A stretch of 64,000 bases of DNA from Campylobacteraceae bacterium (GTDB taxonomy: Bacteria > Campylobacterota > Campylobacteria > Campylobacterales > Sulfurovaceae), in the NCBI GenBank assembly GCA_027038295.1, contig JALVXD010000216.1, positions 14,804 through 78,803 of the forward strand, read 5' to 3'. Positions within the stretch are counted from its first letter, which is position 1, and each line of letters starts with the position of its first letter. Made by a program: the position numbers and the translations under genes. The notes beneath the pieces were generated by a model. That model had not been told where the DNA came from. It worked only from the letters and a program-made list of their open reading frames with translations, and searched no databases. Positions 3,350-35,362 of this stretch are shown here, in pieces.

Positions 3350-3369
3350 ATAAAAAAGGTATAGAAATT

Positions 3370-3840: not shown

Positions 3841-3923
3841 ACACTTTTGCAGAGTGTTTCATCTTATATAGATAGATTAAATTAATCAAAGGTGACAAGT
3901 AATAAATAAGATAAAACAAAAAA

Positions 3924-5324: not shown

Positions 5325-5498
5325 TATTGTCCATTATGGAAGAAGTATATATAATGATTATGCCATAAATTTTATATATTATAAGATGAATAATAAATCA
5401 AAAATCTATTATATTTTTATTTGAGAAAATAAAGTATATTCTTAAGTACTACTGACTATAATAATGTTGATTTACGTTATAAAAAACTAAGGAAGCCA

Positions 5499-6774: not shown

Positions 6775-6777
6775 CTA

Positions 6778-7797
6778 TTAAAAGTCATCAAAGTCTAAAC
6801 TACCTTTCGAGTAGTTTGCTACGTTACCTTCAAAAAAGTTTGTTTTTTGGTCATTAAACTTTCCAAAATCATCAACCCATTTAATAGGATGTTCAACATT
6901 ATATAGTTTATTCATACCTACAGCATGTAGTCTTTCATCTGCTAAGTACTGGATGTACTGCTCTATAATATCGTTTGTCAAACCTAAAATTTGACCTTGA
7001 GTAATGTATTTACCCCAATCACTCTCAAGCTTTACTGCCTCTCTAAACATGTTGTAAATCTCATCGTTAAACTCTTTTGTAAAGATATCTGGACGTTCAC
7101 GTTTTACAGCACGAATCATATTTTGAAAAAGAATCAAGTGTGTTACTTCATCACGTTGAATAAAACGAATCATCTGTGCTGAACCTAGCATTTTTCCTGA
7201 ACGTGCAAGGGTATAGAGGTAAGTAAAACCTGAATAGAAGTAGATGCCCTCTAATATTTGGTTAGCAAACATTGCTTTTACTATGTTTTCATCGGTTGCA
7301 TTTACACTTAGCTCTTCATAAATTTTTGCAATGGCATCATTTTTTGTTTTAAGCATCATATCTTGTCGCCAAAGTTGGTAGATTTCATCTGAGTTTGTAG
7401 ATATACTATCCACCATCACAGCATAACTCTGTGAATGAAGTGCCTCTTCAAATGCTTGTCTAACCAACACTAAGTTAATTTCAGGAGAGGTAATAAAGGG
7501 ATTAACATTATCTATAAGGTTATTGGTTTGTAATGAATCCATGAAAATAAGCTGTGATAAAACTTTGTCATAAGCTGTTTTCTCTGAATCAGTTAAACGT
7601 TTATAGTCTCCTACATCTTGGGTCATATCTACCTCTTTAGGAAACCATGTATTGTTTAACATCACTTCCCATAAATTATACGCCCAATTGTATTTAATAT
7701 CATTAAGTTCAAAAATACCTGTAGGGTCTCCACCAAATATCTTTCTATCACTTGTTTTCTCTTTTGATTCGGGGTTGTATATTTTCTTTCTATTCAT
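6778..7797 (-). CDS. nrdB: class Ia ribonucleotide reductase beta subunit
   Basis: Diiron ligands [15 protein letters not shown] (radical Tyr), [17 protein letters not shown]-terminal [10 protein letters not shown]. Confidence 0.95.
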
Positions 7798-9462: not shown

Positions 9463-12400
9463 CTACCTAAACCTCTTCCTAAAGAAAACATCTATACTCT
9501 GTGATGGCACCGTTTTTTGGTGTTGTCCAACTTCTACTTTTATATTTTTATTAACCTCATACTCCAATATAAATGAGTTACCCTCTTTAGAATTTTCTAT
9601 AACAAACATCGTATCATCATCTATTTTTTTACCTACTTGAACAGCATAGCCTTCACCTGTTCCATCATCTTTTATAAAGACTCTATCAAGTTCAACCTCA
9701 TAGGCAAAATCTCTTGCAGCTTGATTCATAATAAAAAGTTGAGCCTCTCGTCCCAAAGAGCCTCCCCCTTCTGAAAGACTCGCTGTAGAGACACCTAAAA
9801 GTAGATAAGATAAAATATCTTTTTTTGCCATTGCAGGGTCAGAGCTAAAGTCCAGCTTAGGACGATTGGCATCACCATGAATATTAATAGTAATCAGTAC
9901 ATCAGGCAACTCATGTTCTACTTTGATATCCAGTAGAGGATTTATATCTTTTAGTCCTCTAAAAACAATATTAGAATCTACAACAGTAAAAAGTTTTGGA
10001 GCTTGTTCTACACGACCATTTATATCACGTATTTTTCCCAGCATTCCCAAATTTTTACCAAAAGCCTTTTTAGCTTTCACATCAACCGTAAACTCCAACT
10101 CAATATCTCTGGTTTTATACTGAGCATCAGGAGCATAAATAGAAAGGTCTATATAGGTATCTTCTAAAAAATTATCACTCTCTTTTTTCTTCTTTTTATC
10201 TTTTTTAGTAATAACTATAACATCGGGGTCATGTGCAGCATCTAAAAACTTGGCTTCATAAAAAACTTTTAGCTTATCAAGAGAAACTCCACCTACAATT
10301 TTTCTCTTTTTCCCTATTTGACTATAGTTTATATGGGTACTAAGAATCATACTTCCATAATTTGGGTGACCCAAAGGTAGTTTCTCTATAGAAGCATCAA
10401 CACTCATATTTTCTACAGTACCTTTTCCCTTGACCAATATATTTGGATGCATGTCTATAAGCACATCTCTCTTCTCTCCCAAATAAATCTTTCCTTTTTG
10501 GTTCAAGTAGAAATCTCTGTTTAACTTTTTATCTTTAAAGCCTGTGGTTTTAAAACTTAAGGTATTAAGTGTGAGTAACTCTTTAGCATAATGAACATCT
10601 ACATCTAAACTCTCAATGTTAAACCCTTCCATCTTTAGCTTAGGAGAGTTTAGTTTTGCAAAAATCTCTTCACCTCTCATCTTAACTTTGGCATGTAATG
10701 GTCCATTAACAGGGGTTACAGTAAATGGATAGAGTGCTGAAAACTCTTTTTCTAGCTTGGTAACAGAGTCGATATCTAAAGTTGCTTCTATCTGCTTCTT
10801 TGCTATATCTCCTTTAGCAAGTAGTTTAAGATGAGCTGTTGTAATTTTTACATTTAGACCAGAAGCATCATTTTTAGCATCAATATGAGCTTTAAAGCCT
10901 TTATTCGCCTCAATTAGCCCTTTAACCCTAAAGTAGTTCTTAGAAAGAGTTACCTCACCTTCGATGTCTGCTTTAACAAAAGTATCTTTCAACTCACGAG
11001 GAAGTTCTACTATTTTTGCAGGATAAATCCCTTCACTCTTAAGTTTAAAAGTAAAATGGTCATTGTCCGAACTTTCAGCTTTGAGTTGAAGTTTAGGAGA
11101 GTCTATAGTTACAAGTAGTTTTCCTTGCTCATTTTTCATATCTATCTTAACGGGTTTTAGTGATTTTAAATTGACTCCAAAAGCATCAAGATTATCAACC
11201 TCAAGCTTGTTTTTTAGTTTCATAGATTTTGGATTAGTATAATCACCAGAGAAACTACTTTTTAAATTTAGACCCAAAGAGCCACCTGATGATTTAATAT
11301 CTACAGAACCTGATGCCTGATGCGAGAGTAGATTTAACTCTATAGGTGAACCTTTTATGCTTACATTGGATATTTTTTTATCTTTAAGCACTTTGGTATT
11401 AGCAGTTAAATCCAGCTGTAAATCTTTAAGTCCACCTTTGGCTTTTAATACTAAGGGGGTATCACCTTTTAGTTTAAACTCCTGCTCTTTTAAAAAAGTG
11501 TTTATGTATTTGTCATGAGCATCTACCTTCGCTACAACATTTTTTAGTAGCAAAGTGTTGTTTATATCATTGCTATTTAAGCTCACTCCACCATTTATCT
11601 TACCATCTGCAACAGTAGAGCCAAATAGCGTCATAAACGTGGCATCTACATCACCTTTTAAAGGCTTGGCTGTTCCTTTTATATCTACATTTTTCACATC
11701 AAAAGCTATGCTGTTTTGCTTCCCTTTAAGATTTTTAAAAGAGGTTGAGAACGTGACATTTTTCATATTACCTTTTGCTTTTAGATTTACGTGACTATCA
11801 CTAGAGATAGTTACATTTGAGTCTTTTAACATCCTACTCAACCCATTTCCATGACTGTTTAAATCAGAGTTTAGAGTAAAGGTCAAAGTATTGTTTAAAT
11901 CTTTATAGTTTAAAGAGGTTTTTACATCAACCATCCCACCTACTAACGATGAATCAAAATGGGTTAACAGTGTTGCTTTAACATCTCCATCTAAAGGTTT
12001 GGCTGTTCCTTTAAGGTCTAAATCCTTTAGATTTAAAGCCATACCATTTTGCTTTGCCTTTAAGCCTTTAATGGTTGTCTTATACTTCACATTTTTCATA
12101 TTACCTTTAGCAAAAATCTTTACTGTTGGAAAGGCTTGTATCGTAATGTTTTGCTCTCGTAAATTAGTAACGATAGAAGAGTTTTTAGGTTTAAACGTAG
12201 AGTCCAAATCAAAGAGTAAAGTATTGTTCAAATCATCCAAATTTAGCGTAGCATGAGAATCCAACTTCAAATCACCCATATTGGTAACTATCGCTGCTTT
12301 AGTGCTATTAAGCACATCTTTTTTCTCTATGCTATAGTTTCCAAAAGTGTGCAATGTTTTACTATGTACTTCATACTCATTTTGCTTAAAATCCAAACGA

Positions 12401-13134
12401 TGTAGAGTCACATCATAATCAATTTTTTCTAAATCTCCATCTGCTTTTAAAGTCAATTTTGGGTTACTTAAAAAGCTCAAATTCTGCTCTGCTACAAAAG
12501 GTTCTATAAAGCCCTTTTCACCCTCTATAACTCCTGCTAAATGGTAGTGTTCATTTTTAAAAGTAGCATTCAGGTCTGCTTTTGCCATATTACCATCAAG
12601 CCATAGAGTCACATCACCCTCATGTTCTGTTTTCATATCTGTTTCAAGATTATTCACATGAAGTTTAAAGTCATGTACATCATACTCTTGATAGGCTATA
12701 TTTTTCAATGATATATCTGCATTGTTCACTATTACCCTATCAAAAGGAAGCGTGATATTACCTTCTGTTTTATTCTCTTCTGTAGCATTACTATCTATCA
12801 GTGAAGCTAAAAAATCTTTATCAATCTCTGCATTTTTTAAAACCAAATTATCAATATATAAAACTCTATTTTCTAACTGCTCAAGGTCTACTTTTAGGCT
12901 TACCTCTTTAGCATGAACTTGATTGTTATAATGTACATCTGTTAAAGTAAAGCCCGAAAGAAGTCCACCCTCCATCTTGCCATACGTAATCCCCTGCTCT
13001 TTTAGTGGTGACTTTAACAGACCCAAAACAGTTGAGGGAGACTCCAAAACAAAATAGAGAAAAATAGCCAAAAATATAAACAGTAAAATCAACCATTTTA
13101 TAATGCTATGAGAGATTAAGAGTAGCTTTTTCAA
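9463..13134 (-). CDS. tamB: translocation/assembly module TamB-like protein
   Basis: N-terminal TM anchor, long beta-rich repeats, C-terminal DUF490-like region (INPLLDIKVE...GDANRPKLDFSSDP...ILSYLLLG); coupled to an Omp85 gene. Confidence 0.82.
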   Translation of the reverse strand: MKKLLLISHSIIKWLILLFIFLAIFLYFVLESPSTVLGLLKSPLKEQGITYGKMEGGLLSGFTLTDVHYNNQVHAKEVSLKVDLEQLENRVLYIDNLVLKNAEIDKDFLASLIDSNATEENKTEGNITLPFDRVIVNNADISLKNIAYQEYDVHDFKLHVNNLETDMKTEHEGDVTLWLDGNMAKADLNATFKNEHYHLAGVIEGEKGFIEPFVAEQNLSFLSNPKLTLKADGDLEKIDYDVTLHRLDFKQNEYEVHSKTLHTFGNYSIEKKDVLNSTKAAIVTNMGDLKLDSHATLNLDDLNNTLLFDLDSTFKPKNSSIVTNLREQNITIQAFPTVKIFAKGNMKNVKYKTTIKGLKAKQNGMALNLKDLDLKGTAKPLDGDVKATLLTHFDSSLVGGMVDVKTSLNYKDLNNTLTFTLNSDLNSHGNGLSRMLKDSNVTISSDSHVNLKAKGNMKNVTFSTSFKNLKGKQNSIAFDVKNVDIKGTAKPLKGDVDATFMTLFGSTVADGKINGGVSLNSNDINNTLLLKNVVAKVDAHDKYINTFLKEQEFKLKGDTPLVLKAKGGLKDLQLDLTANTKVLKDKKISNVSIKGSPIELNLLSHQASGSVDIKSSGGSLGLNLKSSFSGDYTNPKSMKLKNKLEVDNLDAFGVNLKSLKPVKIDMKNEQGKLLVTIDSPKLQLKAESSDNDHFTFKLKSEGIYPAKIVELPRELKDTFVKADIEGEVTLSKNYFRVKGLIEANKGFKAHIDAKNDASGLNVKITTAHLKLLAKGDIAKKQIEATLDIDSVTKLEKEFSALYPFTVTPVNGPLHAKVKMRGEEIFAKLNSPKLKMEGFNIESLDVDVHYAKELLTLNTLSFKTTGFKDKKLNRDFYLNQKGKIYLGEKRDVLIDMHPNILVKGKGTVENMSVDASIEKLPLGHPNYGSMILSTHINYSQIGKKRKIVGGVSLDKLKVFYEAKFLDAAHDPDVIVITKKDKKKKKESDNFLEDTYIDLSIYAPDAQYKTRDIELEFTVDVKAKKAFGKNLGMLGKIRDINGRVEQAPKLFTVVDSNIVFRGLKDINPLLDIKVEHELPDVLITINIHGDANRPKLDFSSDPAMAKKDILSYLLLGVSTASLSEGGGSLGREAQLFIMNQAARDFAYEVELDRVFIKDDGTGEGYAVQVGKKIDDDTMFVIENSKEGNSFILEYEVNKNIKVEVGQHQKTVPSQSIDVFFRKRFR

Positions 13135-22778: not shown

Positions 22779-24293
22779 CTAATCTTCCATTATCCCGATA
22801 CGCACTGTCTCTTCATATGAGGTTGTTCCATTAATAAGCATATCTTTAAGCTTATCAGCAATGGTTTTCATACCTGCTTTTTTCATCTCTATTCGTATCT
22901 GGTGGTCATTTAAACCATCTTTTATCATCTGCTTCACCTCATCGCCCATTACAAAGAGTTCCCCTACTGCCTGTCGTCCACTGTAACCAGTAAAATCACA
23001 AGAGATACACCCTTTTGCTTGGAAGTACTCGATATTAGGCAATTTCAATTCTGACATAACAACAGGGGCTAAAGTTGTTGGCTCTTTACATTTTGGACAT
23101 AATTTTCGAGTCAAACGCTGTGCCAAAACACCTAAAAGTGTTGAAGTAAGTAAGAAGTCCTCAATTCCCATGTCCATCAGTCTTGAAATGGCTGAGGTAG
23201 CATCATTGGTATGCAGGGTAGAAAGCATAAGGTGACCTGTCAATGCTGAACGTAAAGCAATGTCTGCTGTTTCGCTGTCCCTTATCTCTCCAATCATAAT
23301 AATATCTGGGTCTTGTCTTAGTATCGAACGTAAACCTGCTGCAAAAGTTAAACCTACTTTTTCATTCACTTGTATTTGATTGACATTGTCAGCATTGTAC
23401 TCCACTGGGTCTTCAACCGTAATGATATTCTTATCAGGTGTGGCAATGTGTTGTAAACAGGCATGTAGAGTGGTTGATTTACCTGACCCCGTAGGACCAG
23501 TAACCAACATCATTCCATGTGGGTGGGTTAGAAGCTTGTTTAAATCTTCTGTCAACTCATCAGTAAAGCCAAGGTCTTGCAAGGTAGGAATGGTATCACT
23601 TTGCATAAGCAGTCTCATAACCACACGTTCACCATAATAGGTTGGCAAAACAGAAACCCTAATGTCTAATGTTCTTCCAGAAATAGTAACTTGTGTACGA
23701 CCATCTTGAGGTATTCTCTTTTCAGAAATATCAAGGTTGGAGATAACTTTAATACGAGAAATCACCAAACCTGTAACATTTTTGTCAATATCAAGATGCT
23801 TTTTCAAAGCACCATCTACCCGTAAACGTACCTCACCTTTTTTCTCTAAAGTTTCTATGTGAATATCAGATGCACCTTTTTTAATGGCTTGGAAGAAGAG
23901 TGAGTTCACCAGCTTTACAACAGGTGCTGACTCTTCATTTGAGAGTAAATCTTGTGAATTTCGTATAAAATCAAGTAAGTCAGACTCTACTTCAATAACA
24001 TCATCACCTGTAGAGGTGTCAACATTTTCAAAGTCTGAACCTGTTTGTATCTCTTGAAATTTATTATAAAGACGCTCAAAACTTCCTTCATCTAGCTCTA
24101 CTAAAGGGTAATCTACGTCTATTTGAGAGAGGTGGTTAATAGACATTGCCAAACTCTCTCTTTTGACAACAGCTGTAGGAGTGTTGTCTATATTTGCAAA
24201 GAGTAACTGGTGTTTCATCGCCAGTTTATTGTTTATCTCTTCACTCCAAAAAGGTTCTAAGTCTCTATTTTCTAGTAAAGGTAAATTCATCAT
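22779..24293 (-). CDS. gspE: T2SS ATPase GspE
   Basis: ASDIHIE, GPTGSGKST, LRQDPDIIMIGEIRD, TGHLMLSTLHTND, tetra-Cys motif. Confidence 0.93.
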   Translation of the reverse strand: MMNLPLLENRDLEPFWSEEINNKLAMKHQLLFANIDNTPTAVVKRESLAMSINHLSQIDVDYPLVELDEGSFERLYNKFQEIQTGSDFENVDTSTGDDVIEVESDLLDFIRNSQDLLSNEESAPVVKLVNSLFFQAIKKGASDIHIETLEKKGEVRLRVDGALKKHLDIDKNVTGLVISRIKVISNLDISEKRIPQDGRTQVTISGRTLDIRVSVLPTYYGERVVMRLLMQSDTIPTLQDLGFTDELTEDLNKLLTHPHGMMLVTGPTGSGKSTTLHACLQHIATPDKNIITVEDPVEYNADNVNQIQVNEKVGLTFAAGLRSILRQDPDIIMIGEIRDSETADIALRSALTGHLMLSTLHTNDATSAISRLMDMGIEDFLLTSTLLGVLAQRLTRKLCPKCKEPTTLAPVVMSELKLPNIEYFQAKGCISCDFTGYSGRQAVGELFVMGDEVKQMIKDGLNDHQIRIEMKKAGMKTIADKLKDMLINGTTSYEETVRIGIMED

Positions 24294-24302
24294 CTTCTTT
24301 AC

Positions 24303-26492
24303 CTAGTAACTGTTTGCACTATTATCAATCGTGTCCATAATAGATTCGCTCTGTACATAATCACTCTCCTGCGTATAGTCTGAAACCACAGGAAGTGTTG
24401 GCTCATACACTTGATAGTCGTCATTTCCATTTGAAACGTCTACAGGTTTAGGAAGTGCTTTAACAGGGTTTTCAAAATCATTATCATAACTTGACTGACC
24501 ATTAAATGTACTATGTCTTCCGTTTGAAGGGTTTCCTGCTCTTGCTTCTAATCTATCAAATACTATCTTATTGTACTGTTGTTGAACAGCCTCTAGTTCA
24601 TCTAAGTGAGCGCGTAAAGAGGTTAAATCTGCACTCTTTTTAAGAATATATGGTGTGATATAAATAACCACATTGACCTTACTTGAGGAGTTACCGTTAG
24701 AGGTAAAAAGTCTTCCAATAATAGGGATGTCACCTAAAATAGGTATCTTCGTTTGACTCTTTCCATCAGCACTTTTTATAAGTCCACCCAATATAATGGT
24801 CTCTGCATGATTAACAATAGCATTGGTTTTAACAGAACGCTTGGTTGTGGTTGGTCGGTCAGCAGTAGCACCCGAACCAGGAACAATATCTTCAATAGTG
24901 GTTTCAATTTCAAGTGACACTTTGTTGTTAGAAGAGAGTCTAGGTTTTACTTTAAGGGTAATACCAATATCTTCACGAGAGTAATTGTTTAAAACGTTTG
25001 AAGAGCCTTGCGTACTCTGCTGAGACTGTGTCAAAATAGACTGTGTTCGCCCCACATAAATACTTGCCTCTTTGTTGTTGGTTGACAATACAGAAGGCTT
25101 AGACAAAATCTGTGCAGCTCCATTTTGTTTTAAGAGGTCAAGTTGAGCACCTAAAGAGAACACTTTACTTATCCCCGAGTCAAACTGAAATGCTCTATCT
25201 GTTGTTGTATATCCACTATTACCATTTGTACCTTCATGATAAGTTTCATTACTAAGAAACCCAAGAAGAGATTGAGAAATAGCCAAAGCAGGAGCTCCAG
25301 CATTTCCAGCCAAAGAAAAAAGACCATTTGAAGTAATGGCTCCCCCATTAAACCCATATTTCAAACCAATATTTTCTGCCAAGTTGGTATTGACTTCCAC
25401 AATTTTTGCCTGAATAAACACTTGTGATTTCTCTACATCAAGTAGTTTTACAGTCTCTAAAATATTCTGATACTGGTCTTCATTTGCCAATACAATCAAA
25501 GAGTTTCTCTCTACATCAGAAGCAATAACTGCTTTAGGTGCTGGCTTTCCATTACCAATAGATGAAGGTGCTCCACCAGCTCCTATAGGTGCTCCACCCA
25601 TAGCCCTTGCAGGTGTGCCTCCAGATGAGATAGATCCTCTACCTGTTAACTGTGGTACAATTTTGCTTAAAATCTTCTCCATCTCTTCAACATTGGAGTT
25701 CATCAGAGGAATAACATGCATTCTTTGACTATCACCTCCACCAGGTAAATCAAGCTGTTGTATGTACTTTTCTAATCTTTTAACATTAGAACGCTTTCCA
25801 ACTAAAATAATGGAGTTCCCATTTGAGTTTTGCATAACAGCTACTTTTTCACTCGGGATATCTTGAGAGAAAAGTGCTTTTGACATACTTTGAATATTGG
25901 GATAGACATCTTTAACACGTGCATTTTGTAAGTAGACCACTTTACTTAGCTTTGCCTGTTTATTTTCTATCTTATCTATAAGTTTTTTAGCCGTTTTCAA
26001 GTTACGAGGGTAATCAGTAATGGCTAAAAGGTTGTTTTTCTTAAAAGAGACCACTTTAGCACTTTTGCTAAGAAGTGGTTTAATTTTAGTACGAATAACA
26101 GCTGAGTTCACATTTGAAAGTTGAAAAACCACTGTTTTCATGGTACCATCACCAGAGGTAACACTGGAAGAGACATCCAGTCCTTGACCTGGAGCTGTGG
26201 TTGACTTAACTACTTGATAATAATTTCCTTTTTTTACCAAAGTCATCTTCTTAGTTCCCAAAATAGCATTGGCTAAAGGAATAAGTTCACTCTTGTCAAT
26301 AGGGGTATTGGAGACAAAGTTTATTTTACCTTTAATATCTCCATCTACTAAAATATTTTTTCCTGTAATTTTACCAACCATTTTAATAAAGTCACTAATG
26401 GTCAAATCTCTAAAGTTTACATCTACCTTTTCTGCCTGAGCTTGTACACTCAAAGCCAAAATCAAACCTAATGCCAGTTTACTTAATTTCAT
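24303..26492 (-). CDS. gspD: T2SS secretin GspD
   Basis: N0-N3 domains; QVFIQAKIVEV, REDIGITLKVKP, IILGGLI, KIPILGDIPIIGRLF. Confidence 0.93.
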   Translation of the reverse strand: MKLSKLALGLILALSVQAQAEKVDVNFRDLTISDFIKMVGKITGKNILVDGDIKGKINFVSNTPIDKSELIPLANAILGTKKMTLVKKGNYYQVVKSTTAPGQGLDVSSSVTSGDGTMKTVVFQLSNVNSAVIRTKIKPLLSKSAKVVSFKKNNLLAITDYPRNLKTAKKLIDKIENKQAKLSKVVYLQNARVKDVYPNIQSMSKALFSQDIPSEKVAVMQNSNGNSIILVGKRSNVKRLEKYIQQLDLPGGGDSQRMHVIPLMNSNVEEMEKILSKIVPQLTGRGSISSGGTPARAMGGAPIGAGGAPSSIGNGKPAPKAVIASDVERNSLIVLANEDQYQNILETVKLLDVEKSQVFIQAKIVEVNTNLAENIGLKYGFNGGAITSNGLFSLAGNAGAPALAISQSLLGFLSNETYHEGTNGNSGYTTTDRAFQFDSGISKVFSLGAQLDLLKQNGAAQILSKPSVLSTNNKEASIYVGRTQSILTQSQQSTQGSSNVLNNYSREDIGITLKVKPRLSSNNKVSLEIETTIEDIVPGSGATADRPTTTKRSVKTNAIVNHAETIILGGLIKSADGKSQTKIPILGDIPIIGRLFTSNGNSSSKVNVVIYITPYILKKSADLTSLRAHLDELEAVQQQYNKIVFDRLEARAGNPSNGRHSTFNGQSSYDNDFENPVKALPKPVDVSNGNDDYQVYEPTLPVVSDYTQESDYVQSESIMDTIDNSANSY

Positions 26493-27309
26493 ATTCTAAC
26501 TCCTCTGTTGCACCATTTCTTTGAACGGTTAATGTTAAATTTTCTATATTATTTATATCTTTAAAAAAGCTCATGGCCGCACCGTAAGAGTTTAACTCTT
26601 CGCCATTTATTCCCATGAGAATATCACCTCGTTGAAGTCCTAGCTTTTCAAAATCACTGCCTCTTTTGACAAAGTTAATTTTAAATCCATTTATTTTACC
26701 AGAGATTTTATTTTCACTAATTCCTATATCTTTCCAAATCTTGTCTACATTTTTAGTATAAGAGGTTAGTAGGTCTCTCTGGATATGCTTTACACCACCC
26801 TCTTCAACAATAGCATTATTTGGTTTTTTATCATTTGACGATACAGCCTTAGGTCTAGAACGTGACTTACCTGAATTTTTAATATTAATCAAAGAGAGTT
26901 TAAACTCTTTGTCTCCTTTGGTAAACATTGCAAAGTTTGGACCAGCAGAGGTAAGGGTAAACCCATCTATCTTTTCACCTTTTCCAAGTACGGTTGTTTT
27001 AGAACCTTTTACTACAGTAACGACCAATGCATCAGAAGCATTATAGAGTGCTAAAAGCTTAATACCCCTCATGGAACTTACAACTGGTGCTTTTTTTCTA
27101 GTAGTATTTACAGGAGCAATAGAAGCAGCTGCATTGGTTAATTTTACTCTATAGTATAAAGCTTTTGCTTTTCCCTCTTGGGCATACTCTTCACCTGAAC
27201 TTGGCAGCAAAAAGAGCGAAACTGCCAACCAAATAAGTTTTACTAAAACTATAATGGATAAAAAGAATATGGCTGTCGAGAAATATTTAGTATTAATAAT
27301 TTGTTTCAT
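26479..27309 (-). CDS. gspC: T2SS GspC-like protein with PDZ domain
   Basis: N-terminal TM, HR domain, C-terminal PDZ (GFKINFVKRGS...LGLQRGDILMGINGEEL). Confidence 0.8.
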   Translation of the reverse strand: MKQIINTKYFSTAIFFLSIIVLVKLIWLAVSLFLLPSSGEEYAQEGKAKALYYRVKLTNAAASIAPVNTTRKKAPVVSSMRGIKLLALYNASDALVVTVVKGSKTTVLGKGEKIDGFTLTSAGPNFAMFTKGDKEFKLSLINIKNSGKSRSRPKAVSSNDKKPNNAIVEEGGVKHIQRDLLTSYTKNVDKIWKDIGISENKISGKINGFKINFVKRGSDFEKLGLQRGDILMGINGEELNSYGAAMSFFKDINNIENLTLTVQRNGATEELEYEIK

Positions 27310-27811
27310 AGTACCATCCTCCTGTTTTATCTTTTTTCAAAAACTTTTTAATTGTTTGTATATCTTTTACTACAGGAAAATCAATATGAACTTGCTTCGC
27401 CTTTAGGGCTACTGTACCTGATGCTGTACCAAAACTACCCAAACCATCTATGGTCACATTTAAGGGATTAAGCAAAGAGTATTTAACGTTTAACTCATCT
27501 ATAGATTTAGGAGCCATAGCCTGTAGTGACTCATCTATATTTATATTTTCTACGTTTAAACTGTTATAAAAAAAGAAAATATTGAGTTGTAAGTTGGCTG
27601 TATTTGCCATCTTAATACCCTTAACATAAACATCTGCATTTTTAATATTTAAACCAAACCATGTGTCTGTAACGGTCTCATTTGAGAGAACAATATCGTT
27701 CTCTTTTAACTTCTTTTCTAACAGATAATAGAGTTCTTGCTTTGGTGCAAGAAGCCACATAAGGACAAGAAAGAGTAAAAATCCACCTACTATTCGTTTT
27801 ACCATTTGCAT
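27293..27811 (-). CDS. T2SS accessory protein, GspN-like
   Basis: N-terminal TM plus beta-rich body; assigned mainly by position between the gspM-like gene and gspC. Confidence 0.5.
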   Translation of the reverse strand: MQMVKRIVGGFLLFLVLMWLLAPKQELYYLLEKKLKENDIVLSNETVTDTWFGLNIKNADVYVKGIKMANTANLQLNIFFFYNSLNVENINIDESLQAMAPKSIDELNVKYSLLNPLNVTIDGLGSFGTASGTVALKAKQVHIDFPVVKDIQTIKKFLKKDKTGGWYYETNY

Positions 27812-28215
27812 GTGAACTCCATAGAATATATATTTTTTGAACTCTCTATAATCTTTAAGCTTATTATCTGCACAGGCATACTCATAAGTTTATTATTTAG
27901 CTTATATAACTCATCTGCAGTAAGATTTACATAGGAAGCTACCAATTTTTTAGATTTAGGACTAAAAGATTTTACTTTAGAAGCATCAACAACTGTTTTT
28001 AAAGCTTTAACTTTCTTTGGCATACCTTTGCCATCCCATTGACTTTTATATTTATTAATAGCTGTTATCTCGGCTATCTGCTGTTGTGTTCGTGCCTTAT
28101 TCTCTTCTACATATGAACTGGCATTTAGTTTATAGAGGAAAGCACCCATAACAAAAAGTAATGCTAAGAGTAAAATAATTTCATTTTTATAACGTTGAAG
28201 TGTCATTAAATTCAT
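27799..28215 (-). CDS. T2SS GspM-like assembly platform protein
   Basis: Single TM followed by a short periplasmic domain; follows the gspL-like gene. Confidence 0.55.
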   Translation of the reverse strand: MNLMTLQRYKNEIILLLALLFVMGAFLYKLNASSYVEENKARTQQQIAEITAINKYKSQWDGKGMPKKVKALKTVVDASKVKSFSPKSKKLVASYVNLTADELYKLNNKLMSMPVQIISLKIIESSKNIYSMEFTCKW

Positions 28216-29141
28216 AGTTTAACCTCGACTTTCACATTAAGACCTGAACCTGATATTTTCATTTTTTTAGCTTTTCCATGCTCTTTAACCTGCTTACTAA
28301 TGGCTGTATTTTGCGTCACAATATCTGCAGAGACTATATTTTTATCAATTGTCAGTGACTTAAGTTGACTTTTTGCTGATAAAAGCGTAGATATATCTTT
28401 TATCGCATCTCTCTTAGCACGTTCTATGGTATCAATTGGTTTATACTTATCTAAAATACTTGCTCTTAAAGCACTACTTCCATATTTTGGATTATCATCA
28501 ATAAGCATCGTTAACTTAGCATCTTCATTGGCTATAGATGATTTTATACGCTGACCTTCTACGATAAATGTTGTACCTAAAAGTGCAAGAAGTGAACCTA
28601 AAATAATGGTCTCTTTTAATGAAACAAAAGACTCAAGCGAATCCCCCATACTAACACCATTTTTAAGCTTTGGCTTGTCAATGTCCAGTGTTGAGTACGC
28701 TACTTCATCTCCTAAAAAACGTTTAGGAACCATGGTTACGATACCATCAACACTTTGTAAAGCATGATTGCCACTTAATAACAAGGGTGTAGACAATTCA
28801 CTTTCAAGCTGTTGTGCAAAGTATATTTTTGAAACACGATGTTTCTCTATACCTACACTCTCTAAAAATTGGTCTATTTCCTCTATATTGTACGCAAAAA
28901 AACACCATAGTTTATCACATTTGTAGACATGATATTGATACACCTTAGATGCATCTAAATAGTCATCAAACATTGACTCTGCTATCTGTTTTGCTTGATA
29001 CGCAAACTTGATATCCAACTCTTCATGTAAAAAAGTATAAAACTGAGGTGTCAGTATAATCTCAACAGAGTTTTCTAATTTTACAGGTTCCATATTTTTA
29101 TGGATTAATATTCTATTACTCTGCTTTGCCGTTAAATTCAA
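28212..29141 (-). CDS. T2SS GspL-like assembly platform protein
   Basis: Cytoplasmic domain, TM (IILGSLLALLGTTFIV), periplasmic domain; between gspK and the gspM-like gene. Probable TTG start at 29141 with GGAG 8 nt upstream (the ORF track starts at 29171). Confidence 0.6.
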   Translation of the reverse strand: MNLTAKQSNRILIHKNMEPVKLENSVEIILTPQFYTFLHEELDIKFAYQAKQIAESMFDDYLDASKVYQYHVYKCDKLWCFFAYNIEEIDQFLESVGIEKHRVSKIYFAQQLESELSTPLLLSGNHALQSVDGIVTMVPKRFLGDEVAYSTLDIDKPKLKNGVSMGDSLESFVSLKETIILGSLLALLGTTFIVEGQRIKSSIANEDAKLTMLIDDNPKYGSSALRASILDKYKPIDTIERAKRDAIKDISTLLSAKSQLKSLTIDKNIVSADIVTQNTAISKQVKEHGKAKKMKISGSGLNVKVEVKL

Positions 29142-30027
29142 AATTGCCACTCCTTCCTTCAATGTAATCAAAATTCATTTTATATTGCCCATCTCTATAA
29201 GCATAGGTCTCTTCACAATGCATCGCATTAAGTGCTTTGTTGGAATAAATATTTTTATCTATAGGCTCCATTATAGAATTTTCTGTTAAAAAACTCTGTA
29301 AAGTGGTTTCTCCTATTATCCAACCCTCTTGTACTATTTCTATAGGAACCTCAAAAGCAACTGAAATAAATTCAGGACTTAAGTACGCACCATCTATTTG
29401 TGTTTTGTTATCTACCTTTGTAAATGAAAAGTAACGCTCCCAAGGAACCAAAAGTACTTTTGGGTCATCAAATCGTAAACGATAGTCTGAAATAATCCTA
29501 TCAAACTGACTTATTGAGACAACTCCTTTTTTACTTTTTATTCTAGGAGCATCATCTTCATTTTGTGAAACTTTTCCTGTAACAGCTTGCAATATAAGTC
29601 TTTCAAGCTCATTAGGCTCTTGAACATCATAATGTTCCATTACTAAGGTCAGTATTTTTTTCGCTAAAACTGCCTTTTTAGGAGTTTTAGGAAAAAGAGA
29701 ATTGTCTAACCAAGAGATGGGTACACCCACCATCAATGGCTTACAACTCAAATTTAATCCAAACCCACTTTTTGCTTCGCTCAACATCAAAGGCATTGTA
29801 TATATTAATTTTAATTTTTCACTGTTGTCCTTCCCTTGTGGGAAAAAACGTTTTAAAATATTTACTGTATTTTTTTGTAACAGATTCCCTTGTAAAATAG
29901 CCGATGTTGCTCCAGCATCTTTTTGCACTTTTTCCAAATAGGTAAACGATACAGCTATTATAGACATAATAGAAGCAATCACCATCAATGTAATAAAAAG
30001 TGCGATACCACGTTTTGTTTTATCCAT
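29116..30027 (-). CDS. T2SS minor pseudopilin GspK-like
   Basis: KRG/IALFITLMVI: atypical prepilin lacking Glu5, as in GspK; start taken at MDKTKRG (30027). Confidence 0.72.
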   Translation of the reverse strand: MDKTKRGIALFITLMVIASIMSIIAVSFTYLEKVQKDAGATSAILQGNLLQKNTVNILKRFFPQGKDNSEKLKLIYTMPLMLSEAKSGFGLNLSCKPLMVGVPISWLDNSLFPKTPKKAVLAKKILTLVMEHYDVQEPNELERLILQAVTGKVSQNEDDAPRIKSKKGVVSISQFDRIISDYRLRFDDPKVLLVPWERYFSFTKVDNKTQIDGAYLSPEFISVAFEVPIEIVQEGWIIGETTLQSFLTENSIMEPIDKNIYSNKALNAMHCEETYAYRDGQYKMNFDYIEGRSGNFEFNGKAE

Positions 30028-30090
30028 AATAAAGCTCAATTCAAGTAAAATCAGCACTATTATAACCAACTTAAACTAAGGATTTTAAAC

Positions 30091-30618
30091 ATGACTAAAG
30101 AATTTGGACTAAAAAGCCACAAAACAACAACTTTAACTAAAAATAAAAATATTTTTTTAATTAATAAAGTCAATCAAAAACAGAATAAAATATCTTTAAC
30201 AACAGCAAAAAACGCTTTCTCACTGCTTGAGCTTTTGGTTGTTATTTTAATCTTAGGAATTTTAGCAGCAGCCGTAGTTCCTAGAGTTGTAGGAGCAGGA
30301 GACAAAGCAAAAGTAGACTTGGTTTGTGTCAATATGAAAGGTGCTGCAAATGCACTCAAAATGTTTAAACTTGACAATGGAATGTACCCAGAAACAGAAG
30401 AGGGATTTGAAGCACTACAATCAAACCCAGACGCAGACAAATACTCAAATTACTCTTCAGCTGCTTACCTAGAACACCTTCCAAAAGACTCTTGGGGTTC
30501 AAAAATGGTCTATATTAAAACAGGTAATGCTTTTGATATCATCTCTTATGGTGCTGACAAACGTGAAGGTGGAACTGACGAATACGCTGATATTAAATAT
30601 TCAGGATGTAACAAATAG
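30091..30618 (+). CDS. gspG: T2SS major pseudopilin GspG
   Basis: AFSLLELLVVILILGILAAAVVP, FKLDNGMYP...EGFEAL, PKDSWG, IISYGADKREGG; AAGGA RBS before the ATG at 30091. Confidence 0.92.
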   Translation: MTKEFGLKSHKTTTLTKNKNIFLINKVNQKQNKISLTTAKNAFSLLELLVVILILGILAAAVVPRVVGAGDKAKVDLVCVNMKGAANALKMFKLDNGMYPETEEGFEALQSNPDADKYSNYSSAAYLEHLPKDSWGSKMVYIKTGNAFDIISYGADKREGGTDEYADIKYSGCNK

Positions 30619-30619
30619 A

Positions 30620-31156
30620 ATGTCTACAACAACCCGTTCAGGATTTTCTCTTTTAGAACTTATTGTTGTTGTTATGATTGTCTCACTTGTTGGGTTTTTA
30701 GTTTTCTCTTCTGCCATTAAACAGCAAAAAAAAGTAGAAGCTCTAAACCCTTCTACACTTCCTAGTACATTCAAAAAAACCTTTAAAGGTCAAGGTGATG
30801 TTGAACTTTTCTGTGTTAAAAAATGTACTGAATGCTCTGTGATGCAAGAAGGAAAGATAAGCGCTTACGCTGGTGGCATAAAATTTGGTAAAAATGTAGA
30901 GATTCATACACTAGATAATAATAACCACTTTATTCAACAAGAGGAACTTGGACGATTTAAAGATGAAAAAATAAGTTTTAGATTCCATCTCTACCCAAAT
31001 GGGAGTACCACACAGATGGTTGTAGTAAATGACCAAGGCATCTACTTTCTTCCCAGCTATTTTGGCAAAGCTAAAAAAGTAAAAGATATGGATGAAGCCA
31101 AAGAGTTATGGATAAAGAGTAAGTATGATTTAAAAGATAGTAGCTCATTTTACTAA
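30620..31156 (+). CDS. T2SS minor pseudopilin, GspH-like
   Basis: RSGFSLLELIVVVMIV; start moved to the ATG at 30620, 1 nt after the gspG stop; FYPNGS-like motif (LYPNGST). Confidence 0.75.
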   Translation: MSTTTRSGFSLLELIVVVMIVSLVGFLVFSSAIKQQKKVEALNPSTLPSTFKKTFKGQGDVELFCVKKCTECSVMQEGKISAYAGGIKFGKNVEIHTLDNNNHFIQQEELGRFKDEKISFRFHLYPNGSTTQMVVVNDQGIYFLPSYFGKAKKVKDMDEAKELWIKSKYDLKDSSSFY

Positions 31157-31174
31157 ATAGAGGAATATAAATAT

Positions 31175-31585
31175 ATGAACCATATAAAAAAAGCTTTTAC
31201 ACTTATAGAAGTTATTATGTCCGTTATCATCGTTTCAATAGTGGTAATGGGTGCTCTACAACTACAAGAACAGAACAGCGACATGGCAACCTACCTTATG
31301 AAAAGAGGAAATGCAGAACTTGACAACTCACTCTTTTTAACCCAGAGGGTACAACGTTACGATAAAAGTAAAAAAAATGCCTATGATATACTTGTAGATG
31401 AGTTCCAAATAAAAGATGATAAAAGCCGTCAACTCTTAAAAAAGATAGAGAAAAAAATCAACATTACAGAAGCAACACCCATCCCTGTAGGAGCTACAGA
31501 AGACTCTCCTCCACTTTTTACTTTTTACTCCAATGAAATTTTACTTAATGGAAAGTATCCTTCTAGGTATTTTACTTTTAAATAA
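31175..31585 (+). CDS. T2SS minor pseudopilin, GspI-like
   Basis: KKAFTLIEVIMSVIIV class III signal. Confidence 0.72.
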   Translation: MNHIKKAFTLIEVIMSVIIVSIVVMGALQLQEQNSDMATYLMKRGNAELDNSLFLTQRVQRYDKSKKNAYDILVDEFQIKDDKSRQLLKKIEKKINITEATPIPVGATEDSPPLFTFYSNEILLNGKYPSRYFTFK

Positions 31586-31660
31586 AATCTATACTACATA
31601 AAATCCTATACCTTTAAAATTTAAGCTGACACTATTATAATATTAAAAAAGGAGTCAAGC

Positions 31661-32512
31661 ATGAAAAAAGGAATATCCATACATATAGGGTTAAACCATC
31701 TTGATGAAGAACACTATGGTACAGGAGTCTCTCCACTAGAGACTTGTGAACAAGATGCTAGAGACATACAAGAACTTGCTTTAAATCAAAACTTTAAATC
31801 CACCTTTTTACTTTTGAGTGAAAATGCCACAAGAGCTGCTGTAAAATCTGCCATAAAATCTGCTAGTAAAGAGCTATATTCTGGTGATATACTCTTGTTA
31901 AGTTACTCAGGTCATGGTGGTTTTGTACCTGACACAAACGGTGATGAGACAGACGATACACTCGATGAGACATGGTGTCTTTATGATGGTCAATTTATAG
32001 ATGATGAACTCTTTAAGTTGTGGAGTAGATTTAAAGTTGGTGTACGAATTGTTGTACTTTCTGACTCATGTCATAGTGGTACAGTGGCTAAAGCCAATAA
32101 TTTAAGAGATGAAAAAAAAGAGAACAGTATCTTTAAAAAGAAGCTTCTCCCCTATAGTGTTGCTAAGTCGGTCTATTATAATAATAAAAGTTTCTACGAA
32201 AAAATAGCAAAAAAATTTTTAAATAAAAAGCCTAAGGAGCTAAGAGCGAGTGTTAAACTCTTGGCAGCTTGTCAAGACCCAGAAGTCTCCTATACTATTC
32301 CATTTGCACGAAACAGTATATTTACTGAAAAGCTACTAAAAGTATGGAATTCTGGACAGTTTGTAGGTACCTATGATGAGTTCTTTGAGACCATAAAAGA
32401 GGAAGTAAGCTCTTTAAACTTTTTACCTACCAAACAGACCCCAAATCTTTATGATGTAGGTAGAGAAAATGAGGACTTCGACAAACAGAAGCCATTTCAG
32501 ATTTATGAGTAG
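31661..32512 (+). CDS. caspase-family (peptidase C14, metacaspase) protein
   Basis: ISIHIGLN start, catalytic dyad SYSGHG and LSDSCHSGT, DETWCLYD, LLAACQD; no signal peptide; AAGGAG RBS. Confidence 0.93.
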   Translation: MKKGISIHIGLNHLDEEHYGTGVSPLETCEQDARDIQELALNQNFKSTFLLLSENATRAAVKSAIKSASKELYSGDILLLSYSGHGGFVPDTNGDETDDTLDETWCLYDGQFIDDELFKLWSRFKVGVRIVVLSDSCHSGTVAKANNLRDEKKENSIFKKKLLPYSVAKSVYYNNKSFYEKIAKKFLNKKPKELRASVKLLAACQDPEVSYTIPFARNSIFTEKLLKVWNSGQFVGTYDEFFETIKEEVSSLNFLPTKQTPNLYDVGRENEDFDKQKPFQIYE

Positions 32513-32517
32513 AGTTT

Positions 32518-34548
32518 ATGGGAAAAACATCTTATAAAAAAAGACTCCTAGATGTACGACAAGATAGACTCGATTTACGAGATAGGGTCTATCAACCTGT
32601 GCTAAAATCTTTAAGTGCTACGTACCCTGATAGCAAATATATCAACTATATTTTAAAATGTTATAGAAAAGAGAATCTTATACTCGACCAAGGAAACAAT
32701 GGGGCTTGTAGTGGTTATGCATTGGCTTCAGTTATTAACTATCTTTTATGGCAACAACAAAATAACTCTGAGATAGTAAGCCCTAAAATGCTCTTTAACC
32801 TTGCACGTATTTACGATGAGTGGAATGGTGAAGATTATGAAGGTTCTAGCTGTCGTGGAGCCATGAAGGGTTGGCATAAACATGGTGTCTGTGCTAAGAG
32901 TTATTGGGAGTTTAACCAAGAGGAGCCTAAAGATGGCTGGGACATAGACTCGGTAGAGAGACCTCTTGGTGCTTACTACCGTGTCAACAAAGACTCCATC
33001 TCCGACATACAAGCAGCACTTTGTGAAGTGGGTGCTTTGTATGTTTCAGCATCCATACATGATGGCTGGTGGAGCCTCAATAATTACAAAGATAGAGATA
33101 TAGCAAGTGTAGAAAAAGACCTTCCTGTAATACCTTATGACTCTTTTCCACAAGGAATCCATGCCTTTGTCATTATAGGCTATACAAGACAAGGTTTTAT
33201 TATTCAAAACTCATGGGGTAGAGGTTGGGGGAATTGTGGTTTTGCAATTTTAAGCTATAAAGAGTGGTTAAAAAATGGTCTGGATGTTTGGGTTGCTGTT
33301 ATGGGTGTTCCTATAGACATCGAAAACTCCTCTCAAACCATTACTACAAAATCTCTTGCTTCGGCATCAAAAGTTTATGAAGAGTTACAAACAGAAAATA
33401 AAAGTAACTCTAAAAAAGAAAAGCCAAGAAATGAAGAAAATGCTTACAATCACACCCTCGTACTCAATGCAAATGGACGTGCAAAACATACGATTATTAA
33501 AACATCAACACTAGAGCGTTCTATTGAAGTTATCTGTTATGATAAGCTCAAAACTTGGTTAAAAATGAGTAATAAAAATAGAAAAATAATAATCTATGCT
33601 CTTGGTGGATTAGAGGATGAAAAAGCATATATATCTAAAATAAAAAAACTTATACCTTATTTTCTAAACAGTGGTATCTACCCTATCTTCTTAACATGGG
33701 AGCAAAGTTATCAAAGAGCCATAGAGGAGTCTATTGAATCATTTTTCAAAGAGACACTAGATGGAAGAAATAAAAAACTTGAAAAGAAGATATTAGAAGA
33801 TGAAGTTGCACTAAACAGAGCCATAGAGAACTATTGTAGAAATATCTCCACAAGAGGTATTTGGGTAGAGATGAAAGAGCAATCGAGAAACACTATTCAA
33901 AAAAGAGTCAAAGGCTTTACTGGCGAAAGAAGTGGTGTACTCTATCTTCTGACACACTCTATTAAAGAATTATCTAAGGAGTTTAATAAGTTAGAAGTAC
34001 ATGCCATGGCACACTCTGCAGGTTCTGAGCTCTTAGCAACATCATGGCTAAAAGAGCTCAATAAACAAAAAATAAAACTACATTCTTTGCATCTTTTAGC
34101 TCCTACTATCTCCATTCAAGATAGCAATGCGTTTATAGTTAAATATAGTAAAAAAGGTGTTATTGACAAAAAAAGTATACACATTTACATACTGGATAAA
34201 GAGATGGAAAAGAGAGACCATGTTAGTAGATACAGTCAATCCATACTCTATCTTATTAGTCGCTCTTTAGAAAAAATACACAAAACACCTCTTCTTGGAC
34301 TACTCGACTCTTGGGACGATAAAAACAGTAAAACCAAAGATGGTATCTTTAATACATCACAACTTAATGACCTAAAAAAATGGCATAAATTTGCTTATGC
34401 GTTAGATAATACTCTATTTCCTTATATTTTAAAGAAAAAGCATAGCCAATTAGAATCGTATCAAGATAATGACTTTGTAAAACTCACCCATAAAAATCTT
34501 GATAGTAGTCTCTTTATTTTAGAGAGCGTTTTAAAGATAATAGACTAA
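32518..34548 (+). CDS. papain-like C1 cysteine peptidase fused to a C-terminal alpha/beta-hydrolase domain
   Basis: DQGNNGACSGY (Gln/Cys), GIHAFVIIGY (His), IQNSWGRGWG (Asn); the C-terminal half has the nucleophile elbow AHSAGS, LHLLAP and a distal TH; no signal peptide; starts 5 nt after the caspase stop. Confidence 0.88.
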   Translation: MGKTSYKKRLLDVRQDRLDLRDRVYQPVLKSLSATYPDSKYINYILKCYRKENLILDQGNNGACSGYALASVINYLLWQQQNNSEIVSPKMLFNLARIYDEWNGEDYEGSSCRGAMKGWHKHGVCAKSYWEFNQEEPKDGWDIDSVERPLGAYYRVNKDSISDIQAALCEVGALYVSASIHDGWWSLNNYKDRDIASVEKDLPVIPYDSFPQGIHAFVIIGYTRQGFIIQNSWGRGWGNCGFAILSYKEWLKNGLDVWVAVMGVPIDIENSSQTITTKSLASASKVYEELQTENKSNSKKEKPRNEENAYNHTLVLNANGRAKHTIIKTSTLERSIEVICYDKLKTWLKMSNKNRKIIIYALGGLEDEKAYISKIKKLIPYFLNSGIYPIFLTWEQSYQRAIEESIESFFKETLDGRNKKLEKKILEDEVALNRAIENYCRNISTRGIWVEMKEQSRNTIQKRVKGFTGERSGVLYLLTHSIKELSKEFNKLEVHAMAHSAGSELLATSWLKELNKQKIKLHSLHLLAPTISIQDSNAFIVKYSKKGVIDKKSIHIYILDKEMEKRDHVSRYSQSILYLISRSLEKIHKTPLLGLLDSWDDKNSKTKDGIFNTSQLNDLKKWHKFAYALDNTLFPYILKKKHSQLESYQDNDFVKLTHKNLDSSLFILESVLKIID

Positions 34549-34615
34549 GCATATATTAAATATCTATTAATACTCTTCATGTATACTTACAACATTAAAA
34601 CCTAAAGGGTGAACA

Positions 34616-35362
34616 ATGACTGTAACCAAATACTCTGCCAATGGCAATGATTTTGTTATGATAATCAAAAAAAAGAAAAAAGACCGTTCTAAACTGGCTA
34701 AAAAACTGTGTCATCGTCAAAATGGTATAGGTGCTGATGGATTGGTGGTACTTATTCCTCATGAACAGTATGACTTTGAGTGGGAGTTTTATAACTCAGA
34801 TGGAAGTCGTGCTACCATGTGTGGAAATGCCTCTCGTGCTGTAGCACACTTTGCCATGGAAAAAGGCATCTCTCAAAATGCTGAAGCAGAATTTTTAACG
34901 GGTGCTGGTGTTATACGAGCCAAAGTCAATGGTAACTATGTGGTCTCAGACATGACCAAGCCTGTAATCTTGAGTAAAGAGATAGATGAAGAGGGTGAGA
35001 GATGGTGGTTTATAGACACGGGTGTCCCTCACTTGGTTGCGTTACGTGACAACATAGAAGCGTTTGACCTAGAACAAGCAGCACGTCTACGCAACAAATA
35101 TAACTGTAATGTTAACATCTGTAAAATTGAAGAAAATACACTTTATGTACGAACCTTTGAACGTGGTGTAGAAGATGAAACACTGGCTTGTGGTACAGGT
35201 ATGGTTGCCTGTTTCATACGTGCCAATGGTGAAGATTTGGTCGATAATAATGTAAGAATATTTCCTCGCTCGGGAGATGAACTCTATGTCAGTTTAGAAG
35301 ATGATGTTTATAAATTTGGTGGACAAGTAACCAAAACTTTTGTTGCCGAGACCATTGGCTAA
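34616..35362 (+). CDS. dapF: diaminopimelate epimerase
   Basis: KYSANGNDF, GIGADG, MCGNASR, DTGVPH, ERGVEDETLACGTG. Confidence 0.96.
   Translation: MTVTKYSANGNDFVMIIKKKKKDRSKLAKKLCHRQNGIGADGLVVLIPHEQYDFEWEFYNSDGSRATMCGNASRAVAHFAMEKGISQNAEAEFLTGAGVIRAKVNGNYVVSDMTKPVILSKEIDEEGERWWFIDTGVPHLVALRDNIEAFDLEQAARLRNKYNCNVNICKIEENTLYVRTFERGVEDETLACGTGMVACFIRANGEDLVDNNVRIFPRSGDELYVSLEDDVYKFGGQVTKTFVAETIG

Follow-up and report, generated by a model that had tools for sequence, protein, structure and literature searches.

What does a bacterium gain from a caspase-fold protease encoded directly ahead of a protein that unites a papain-type protease with a lipase-like hydrolase? The question is raised by two genes, here called A and B, in a stretch of 64,000 nucleotides (nt) of contig JALVXD010000216.1 (positions 14,804 to 78,803 of the forward strand, assembly GCA_027038295.1), referred to below as the window. 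The DNA comes from a Sulfurovum-like member of the Campylobacterota found in a hydrothermal-vent metagenome. Gene A (31661-32512) encodes a metacaspase-like Peptidase_C14 protein of 283 amino acids (aa), and gene B (32518-34548) a 676-aa protein composed of a Peptidase_C1 domain and a DUF900-like alpha/beta-hydrolase. Both genes are intact and lie on the plus strand, with a gap of 5 nt between them, intergenic flanks of 75 nt and 67 nt, and no third gene inside. The answer favoured here, held as quite possible and still short of probable, is that A and B form a two-gene operon working as a module of protease and latent effector in cell death or defence.

How would such a module operate? Some trigger, which could be phage infection, envelope damage or an influx of ions, would activate A, and activated A would then cleave B. 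Cleavage would free the proteolytic activity of B, its ester-hydrolysing activity or both to act on the cell's own proteins or on envelope lipids, with growth arrest or death as the outcome. B would be a leaderless executioner, part papain-type protease and part lipase/esterase-like serine hydrolase. What we infer is the cleavage of B by A, the activation of B through it, the substrates of B, the trigger of A and any part that the pair has in phage defence. The effector family itself, a C1 protease joined to a DUF900-like hydrolase, is as far as found without earlier description, and the logic of a protease controlling an effector is already known.

Active sites and domains of the two proteins

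Judged by its sequence, A is a member of the GSU0716/3BIJ metacaspase-like family and a stand-alone caspase fold. It scores 70.5 bits against Pfam PF00656 (Peptidase_C14, cut-off 21.4) and matches GSU0716 of Geobacter sulfurreducens (PDB 3BIJ) with an E of 2.2e-64 over residues 1-283, sharing with it the full length and the catalytic dyad. Similarity to the metacaspases of yeast, plants and trypanosomes, Yca1 and AtMC4 included, is weaker and local. The catalytic residues His85 (SGHG, codon 31913-31915) and Cys137 (DSCHSG, codon 32069-32071) are invariant in 25 A-family sequences, as are the acidic residues D95, D102, D114, D115, E116 and D135. The DSCHSG motif, the acidic loop and what is known of metacaspase biochemistry suggest that A would cleave after Arg or Lys and may respond to Ca2+. 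To our knowledge GSU0716 is uncharacterised and has no known function, and no earlier survey of the partner genes of its family came to light.

The N-terminal domain of B (approximately aa 1-265, 32518-33312) is a papain-family (C1) cysteine protease of the xylellain type. B scores 25.7 bits against PF00112 (Peptidase_C1, cut-off 20.7), a profile matched in all 49 of 49 B-family members, and the best relative of the domain is xylellain of Xylella fastidiosa (PDB 3OIS), with a profile E of 2.7e-15 and a Foldseek E of 7e-14; the top Foldseek matches, xylellain and cathepsins, run from 7e-14 to 1e-8. The papain tetrad, formed by Q58 and Cys64 (DQG..GAC, Cys64 codon 32707-32709), His215 (GIHAF, codon 33160-33162) and N231 (QNSW), is invariant in the 49 sequences. 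A DxRD motif ahead of the catalytic Gln and Cys is shared by B and xylellain. Xylellain has 291 aa and a single domain, whereas B adds a hydrolase of 370 aa and starts about 22 residues closer to that motif. A low-complexity linker follows (approximately aa 266-310, 33313-33447), rich in Ser, Lys and Glu in the window's lineage. It has the lowest confidence in the AlphaFold2 model of B, with a predicted local distance difference test score (pLDDT) of 45 for aa 291-300.

The C-terminal domain (approximately aa 311-676 plus the stop codon, 33448-34548) is a divergent DUF900-like alpha/beta serine hydrolase. Its nucleophile, Ser500 (AHSAG, codon 34015-34017), sits in a lipase-type elbow that the AlphaFold2 model places between a strand (493-499) and a helix (500-506). 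S500, D567 and H658 are at least 90% conserved among the 49 B-family sequences, and H588 is invariant. The B of the window reaches 16.6-17.8 bits against DUF900 (PF05990), below the cut-off of 20.5. The profile is matched in 28 of the 49 members (best E 7.5e-6), and a distant homologue, P0306, scores 22.3 bits. Modelled alone, the 370-residue domain is predicted confidently (pLDDT 88.8, predicted template modelling score 0.90). Comparison of this model with the PDB returned no relative at E <= 1e-3; the weak structural matches are the serine hydrolase YDR428C (probability 0.92, template modelling score 0.50), a feruloyl esterase, cutinases and lipases.

The original prediction had read three intact active sites and the C14, C1 and alpha/beta-hydrolase domains from the DNA alone, and both readings hold: every motif that it named is present, the caspase dyad and the papain tetrad do not vary, and the C14 and C1 matches lie above their Pfam cut-offs. 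It had also described both proteins as lacking a signal peptide. No hydrophobic stretch resembling one is seen at the N-terminus of either A or B, both being hydrophilic when judged by eye.

One short stretch of the hydrolase sets the window's clade apart. At aa 359-365 (33592-33612), B reads YALGGLE in the caspase-linked clade and YAHGGLN in all other clades, so that the His of an HGG-type motif is consistently replaced by Leu in the B of the window's clade. In alpha/beta-hydrolases such a motif often serves as an element of the oxyanion hole.

Persistence of the pair and contexts of A-family caspases

Is the adjacency of A and B more than an accident of one genome? In the B clade of the window, a caspase gene adjoins B in the window itself and in L002-L005, L008, L010, L092-L094 and L110, the pairs of L092-L094 being found on dapF-anchored metagenome contigs. 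In the B tree this clade is caspase-linked throughout, except for the sister pair L006/L009, in which B is solo; L001 and L007 carry too little upstream sequence to be judged. The spacing is 5-19 nt in most relatives. The flanks change while A and B stay adjacent: the pair stands between gspI and dapF in the window, is followed by aroQ in L004 and L110 and preceded by nagA in L008, and the flanks of L003, L005 and L010 differ as well. The differing flanks and persisting adjacency indicate that A and B travel as a unit. The arrangement is not genus-wide synteny, since relatives whose DapF is 77-87% identical have no A-B at dapF. Identity to A offers an indirect indication in the same direction: many A homologues at 60% identity or above appear to share a contig with a B homologue, and those examined below approximately 56% have partners other than B.

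A second association is seen in L026, which belongs to a different B clade. Here genes for an MBL-fold protein, a caspase 31% identical to A and a B protein form one operon with gaps of 10 nt (1080-5077, the MBL gene lying upstream of the caspase and B), and the MBL protein has homology both to VcMBL, a protease-gated nuclease validated by experiment (E 2e-41), and to the LmuA/Avs1a MBL models of PADLOC (E 5e-78). This is a second, independent association of a caspase with B. The pattern is best explained if B is the older component, able to stand alone, to which a caspase was added as regulator on at least two independent occasions, one of them in a Sulfurovum-like lineage.

It could be argued that A and B are functionally unrelated and that their adjacency in one clade is inherited gene order. 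All clade-I pairs could indeed stem from a single ancestral juxtaposition, and A-family caspases do occur beside unrelated genes (MsrAB in L086) or without a partner (L109). However, adjacency and tight spacing have outlasted extensive reshuffling of both flanks, a different caspase lineage adjoins a different B lineage in L026, and A-family caspases are repeatedly followed by cysteine proteases. Mere neighbourhood is accordingly rated very unlikely.

Three further arrangements were observed around B. In L013 (3752-7099), a solo B is immediately preceded by a defence-associated MBL gene of the VcMBL type, and no gene for a protease intervenes, an adjacency that raises the idea that the C1 domain of B could itself license the MBL nuclease. 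In L010 (3721-7744), a gene for a 354-aa Amidase_3 protein (N-acetylmuramoyl-L-alanine amidase) stands between the caspase gene and B, on the same strand and with very short gaps. In L092 (5566-7944) and L001, B and dapF are separated by two additional genes, one for a multi-pass membrane protein of 482 aa and one for a protein of 309 aa.

With whom are caspases of the A family otherwise found? Contexts were sampled for homologues 47-57% identical to A. In L090/L091 (Bacteroidota) the order is Bact_GSDM, a 114-aa gene, a caspase 51% identical to A and a 241-aa gene. In L082 the caspase follows a Trypco1 (Pepco) gene and precedes an nSTAND gene, and in L108 it follows a gene for a Trypsin-nSTAND-TPR protein. 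It lies upstream of a Peptidase_C11 gene in L083 and L088, and in L107 upstream of a stand-alone Peptidase_C1 of another subfamily, beside a PhdYeFM-PIN toxin-antitoxin pair. In L085 and L081 DUF4831 or unknown proteins are encoded downstream; in L086 the next gene is the apparently unrelated MsrAB, and in L109 no partner is evident. Trypco1/2 (Pepco), gasdermin and MBL proteins have been shown experimentally to be protease-activated death effectors. The most striking regularity is a cysteine protease encoded downstream of the A-family caspase (C11 twice, C1, and the C1-hydrolase of B). The original proposal of a conflict or cell-death system finds company in these contexts (gasdermin, Trypco1/Pepco, nSTAND, Trypsin_2, toxin-antitoxin) and none at the loci of the window's own clade, which are not defence islands.

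The L088/L089 locus (926-6974) deserves separate mention. It encodes in order an 852-aa protein with Peptidase_C11, PG_binding_1 and Muramidase domains, a Trypco1 protein, a 379-aa protein, the caspase and a Peptidase_C11 protein, with three Trypsin_2 genes around this set; in architecture the locus resembles the PG_binding and lysozyme extensions of distant B homologues described below. The small proteins encoded 5' of A homologues were considered as a common Pepco family, an idea that was rejected: only those of L082 and L088 are Trypco1, those of L081 and L090 are seemingly unrelated small membrane proteins, and one in L086 is also unrelated.

The gating of death effectors by proteolysis is increasingly seen as a main organising principle in the immunity of prokaryotes, and it has parallels in the caspase biology of eukaryotes. 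Several of these systems resemble the A-B pair in part. In vWA-MoxR conflict systems, caspase-superfamily peptidases always have an alpha/beta-hydrolase as neighbour (Kaur 2020, PMC7159879), and LcCaspase cuts the 296-aa LcHydrolase between Arg and Gly at two sites, whereupon the hydrolase becomes toxic (Evans et al. 2025 preprint, doi 10.1101/2025.11.14.688446). Both share with A-B a caspase-fold protease gene beside an alpha/beta-hydrolase gene, the genes of A-B being co-oriented, and the logic presumed common to the LcCaspase pair and A-B is that cleavage at specific sites activates a hydrolase that is latent until then. In both pairs the closest similarities of the hydrolase, weak in the case of B, are to lipases and esterases. 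In contrast, B has 676 aa and an additional papain-type domain, and A carries no sensor or extension, whereas LcCaspase has 594 aa. With zymogen modules of caspase and alpha/beta-hydrolase published, one of them reconstituted, the original statement that no characterised system has this gene pair is outdated as regards the logic. The proteins of the window are not homologous to those of the published modules, and the literature yielded no description of a caspase gene paired with a C1-hydrolase gene.

Two further groups of systems offer a likeness of arrangement. In gasdermin-protease systems a Peptidase_C14 gene adjoins a latent death effector (Johnson et al., doi 10.1101/2021.06.07.447441), as A adjoins B. 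The operon of the window, however, has no gasdermin gene, and its putative effector is an enzyme fusion rather than a pore-former. As for the protease-gated MBL-fold nucleases VcMBL and AtMBL (Evans et al. 2025) and related nuclease-protease pairs (PMC12799240), a VcMBL homologue joins the caspase and B in L026, but the window has no MBL gene and B is unrelated to MBL-fold proteins. As for the target of the hydrolase, cinquedea of Haloferax is a DUF900-type secreted bactericidal phospholipase (doi 10.64898/2026.06.10.730825). It and B are alike in class, as alpha/beta-hydrolases of the DUF900 neighbourhood. B's own DUF900 score falls below the Pfam cut-off, and cinquedea is secreted and single-domain while B is leaderless and two-domain. 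With a bactericidal phospholipase of this type known, membrane lipids can reasonably be guessed to be what the B hydrolase attacks.

A bolder possibility would take the downstream cysteine proteases as the central feature. Metacaspases of the GSU0716 family would then be initiators that activate a second, executioner cysteine protease (C1, C11 or the C1-hydrolase fusion), making up a bacterial two-tier cascade in which B would be an unrecognised, widespread death effector of dual activity. This extension is regarded as unlikely. Within it, B might in addition use its C1 domain to license effectors encoded nearby, for example the MBL nuclease of L013. If true, the cascade would be a prokaryotic counterpart of initiator and executioner caspases and of the cell death in plants that involves metacaspases and papain-like proteases.

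Distribution of B and the weight of the alternatives

Among 185,579 species representatives, 394 have a B-like protein of about 700 aa; they belong to Campylobacterota, Gammaproteobacteria, Nitrospirota, Desulfobacterota, Planctomycetota, Verrucomicrobiota, Acidobacteriota and others. When searched for exhaustively, B-like proteins numbered 459 cluster representatives at E <= 1e-30. The tree of B mixes phyla. Its rarity and its phylum-mixing tree mark B as an accessory protein, as expected for a gene that moves horizontally.

Several observations weigh against a caspase-gated effector, and the habit of B to occur alone is one of them. In a survey of the neighbourhoods of the 80 best species loci, with all open reading frames (ORFs) clustered, a caspase adjoins B in only 7 of the 80, and B is solo in approximately 70 (about 90%), standing between intergenic spacers of its own with variable, mostly housekeeping neighbours. 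The flanks of the pair in the window's clade likewise consist of housekeeping genes and do not form defence islands. L009 has a nagA-B-aroQ context that resembles that of L008 but lacks the caspase, and its B is intact. Since B is kept intact after an apparent loss of A and is mostly solo, its function needs no adjacent caspase. No sensor is apparent either: 3BIJ covers A from end to end and leaves no sensor domain, and the genes adjoining A-B, those for pseudopilins and dapF, include no sensor gene. The resemblance to the LcCaspase pair is also loose. The hydrolase of B and LcHydrolase show no detectable homology (hhalign probability 1.7%, the nucleophile elbow only), A and LcCaspase are not close (BLASTP E 0.45), and B is, unlike LcHydrolase, usually solo and without an identified Arg-Gly cleavage motif.

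A cleavage site has been equally hard to place. The original prediction put it in the linker (about aa 270-310), which is possible and finds no comparative support, because the linker varies in length and sequence across the family, is present in solo forms of B too and holds no clade-specific basic residue. Indeed, no clade-specific Arg or Lys was found in any flexible region of the caspase-linked B; the only such positions, R50, R224 and K369, all lie in folded parts. A difference at the other end of the protein adds to these points. The B of the window and the other 676-aa variants (95-100% identity, L002 for example) end at ...LKIID and lack a tail of about 20 aa that is conserved in the other aligned B homologues, where it ends in ...VENLC (Campylobacterota) or ...VENLxGF (elsewhere). 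The DNA following the stop codon of the window's B (34540-34615) cannot be aligned with the tail DNA of relatives (L001, L092), which indicates replacement or deletion, not a point nonsense mutation. PADLOC-DB v2 lends the idea of a defence system little, as no model matches B and A reaches only 28.1 bits, a weak score, against the generic 'caspase' model PDLC02987. Recent horizontal acquisition was considered on grounds of composition and rejected, the guanine-plus-cytosine (GC) content of A-B being indistinguishable from that of the flanks. Finally, no RNA runs containing the A-B sequence were found.

What, then, if B works alone? It might be an autonomous intracellular hydrolase, active in stress-related turnover of proteins or lipids or in envelope remodelling, with A as an accessory protease for maturation or turnover and with no role in defence or death. 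The solo occurrence of B among housekeeping neighbours would be as expected, and so would its integrity where A is absent (L006, L009), the lack of a compositional anomaly, of a sensor and of a PADLOC match for B, and the virtual absence of B from viral contigs. On the other hand, a gene found in 0.2% of species with a phylum-mixing tree is atypical for a housekeeping enzyme. Distant B proteins have lysozyme-like, PG-binding and phospholipase-C-family modules joined to them, a defence-type MBL nuclease is encoded together with B in L026 and L013, and the A family is found repeatedly in contexts of conflict. This alternative is considered rather unlikely; were it correct, the finding would reduce to the annotation of two conserved hypothetical proteins of vent Campylobacterota. 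The survey of neighbourhoods has a divided outcome for the original prediction: A-B is a conserved unit in the window's clade and not a product of genus-wide synteny, yet B is solo elsewhere.

Long homologues of B (900-1160 aa) carry additional N-terminal modules, which are PG_binding_1, GH19/lysozyme-like, Phage_lysozyme-like or PF04185 phosphoesterase domains, the last belonging to the phospholipase C/acid phosphatase family. These proteins likewise have no signal peptides. B is therefore a rare protein of the accessory kind, spread over mixed phyla, with a tendency to join up with modules that degrade the envelope. The extensions were also examined as possible 'Rosetta stone' fusions of caspase and B, and this was rejected as they are not caspases. 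A phage origin of B was rejected too, there being one B-like match in 2.9 million viral contigs; the sole match in PHROG is to a generic peptidase family.

Do these modules point to a toxin that acts outside the cell? B could be a lytic toxin directed against competitors or eukaryotic hosts and exported or injected by a non-classical route (lysis, vesicles or an injection system), with A as its processing protease. Such a role would suit the leaderless multi-domain build, the envelope-acting modules of distant homologues that also lack signal peptides, and the likeness to cinquedea as a secreted bactericidal phospholipase, and the conserved C-terminal tail of other B homologues could be a sorting signal. 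Against it stands the lack of that tail in the window's B. The 80 loci also hold no partner or immunity gene conserved beside B, downstream or otherwise, beyond lineage-level synteny (no profile search for secretion markers was made); the recurrent neighbours of solo B, conserved only within lineages, are DnaJ/CbpM-like and nagA-like genes, cytochromes and signalling proteins. Moreover, peptidoglycan-degrading modules fused to cysteine proteases are also found inside intracellular conflict operons (L088). The type II secretion system (T2SS) genes beside the pair offer no route either. A link between A-B and the T2SS was examined and rejected, since the pair stands at non-T2SS loci in L003, L004, L005, L008, L010 and L110, and it is absent from the gsp-dapF junction of the relatives that have one. 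Because other genomes carry the pair elsewhere, the T2SS neighbourhood is coincidental, which together with the hydrophilic N-termini upholds the original view that neither protein looks like a classical T2SS substrate. An exported toxin is judged improbable.

A latent effector gated by A is still the reading that we would place first. If true, it would add a new effector family present in several hundred species of many phyla, give a functional context to the structurally solved GSU0716/3BIJ family of caspases and suggest that bacteria may have a cascade in which one protease acts on another. A further gain would be a handle on why the hydrolase of B is elsewhere fused to modules that degrade peptidoglycan or phospholipids.

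Expression signals and neighbouring genes

How might the operon be expressed? A promoter-like sequence, TTTAAA and TATAAT separated by 17 nt, lies 5' of A on the plus strand (31613-31641, with TATAAT at 31636-31641). Its score of 10/12 makes it the top sigma-70-like match within 31000-35000. This interval holds 18 sigma-70-like sites, against 13.9 +/- 3.6 in shuffled sequences, so that such sites are not enriched and the sequence is merely consistent with a promoter. A Shine-Dalgarno-like AGGAG, read from the sequence, is found at 31650-31654 on the plus strand, 6 nt 5' of the ATG of A. The -10 element and ribosome-binding site of the original prediction are hence present as sequences, while sites like the promoter-like element are not enriched over chance. 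Neither the gspI-A interval nor the A-B gap contains a terminator-like site.

The pair had been placed, with its gap of 5 nt, between the gspGHI pseudopilin genes and dapF, and coordinates and flank annotation agree. Upstream of A, on the plus strand, are the genes for GspG and two more N-methyl pseudopilins, and farther upstream a T2SS cluster on the minus strand includes those for the GspE ATPase and the GspD secretin. Downstream of B, dapF (DAP_epimerase) is followed by a PPIase gene. The ORFs listed for gspG (30091-30618) and for the pseudopilin after it (30527-31156) share 92 nt. In the second of these the N-methyl motif falls at aa 37-58, so that translation probably begins at an internal Met close to aa 32.

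The T2SS locus itself differs between relatives. Compared with the window (22779-31585), L096, L098, L100 and L101 (1-8000) have the T2SS cluster in the opposite arrangement, with gspL/M/C/D/E and one pseudopilin gene abutting dapF and window-like gspG/H/I undetected in the interval. The difference points to a T2SS locus that has been inverted or rearranged within the genus. Elsewhere in the window, the minus strand carries an ORF of 1223 aa followed by one of 573 aa (9463-13134).

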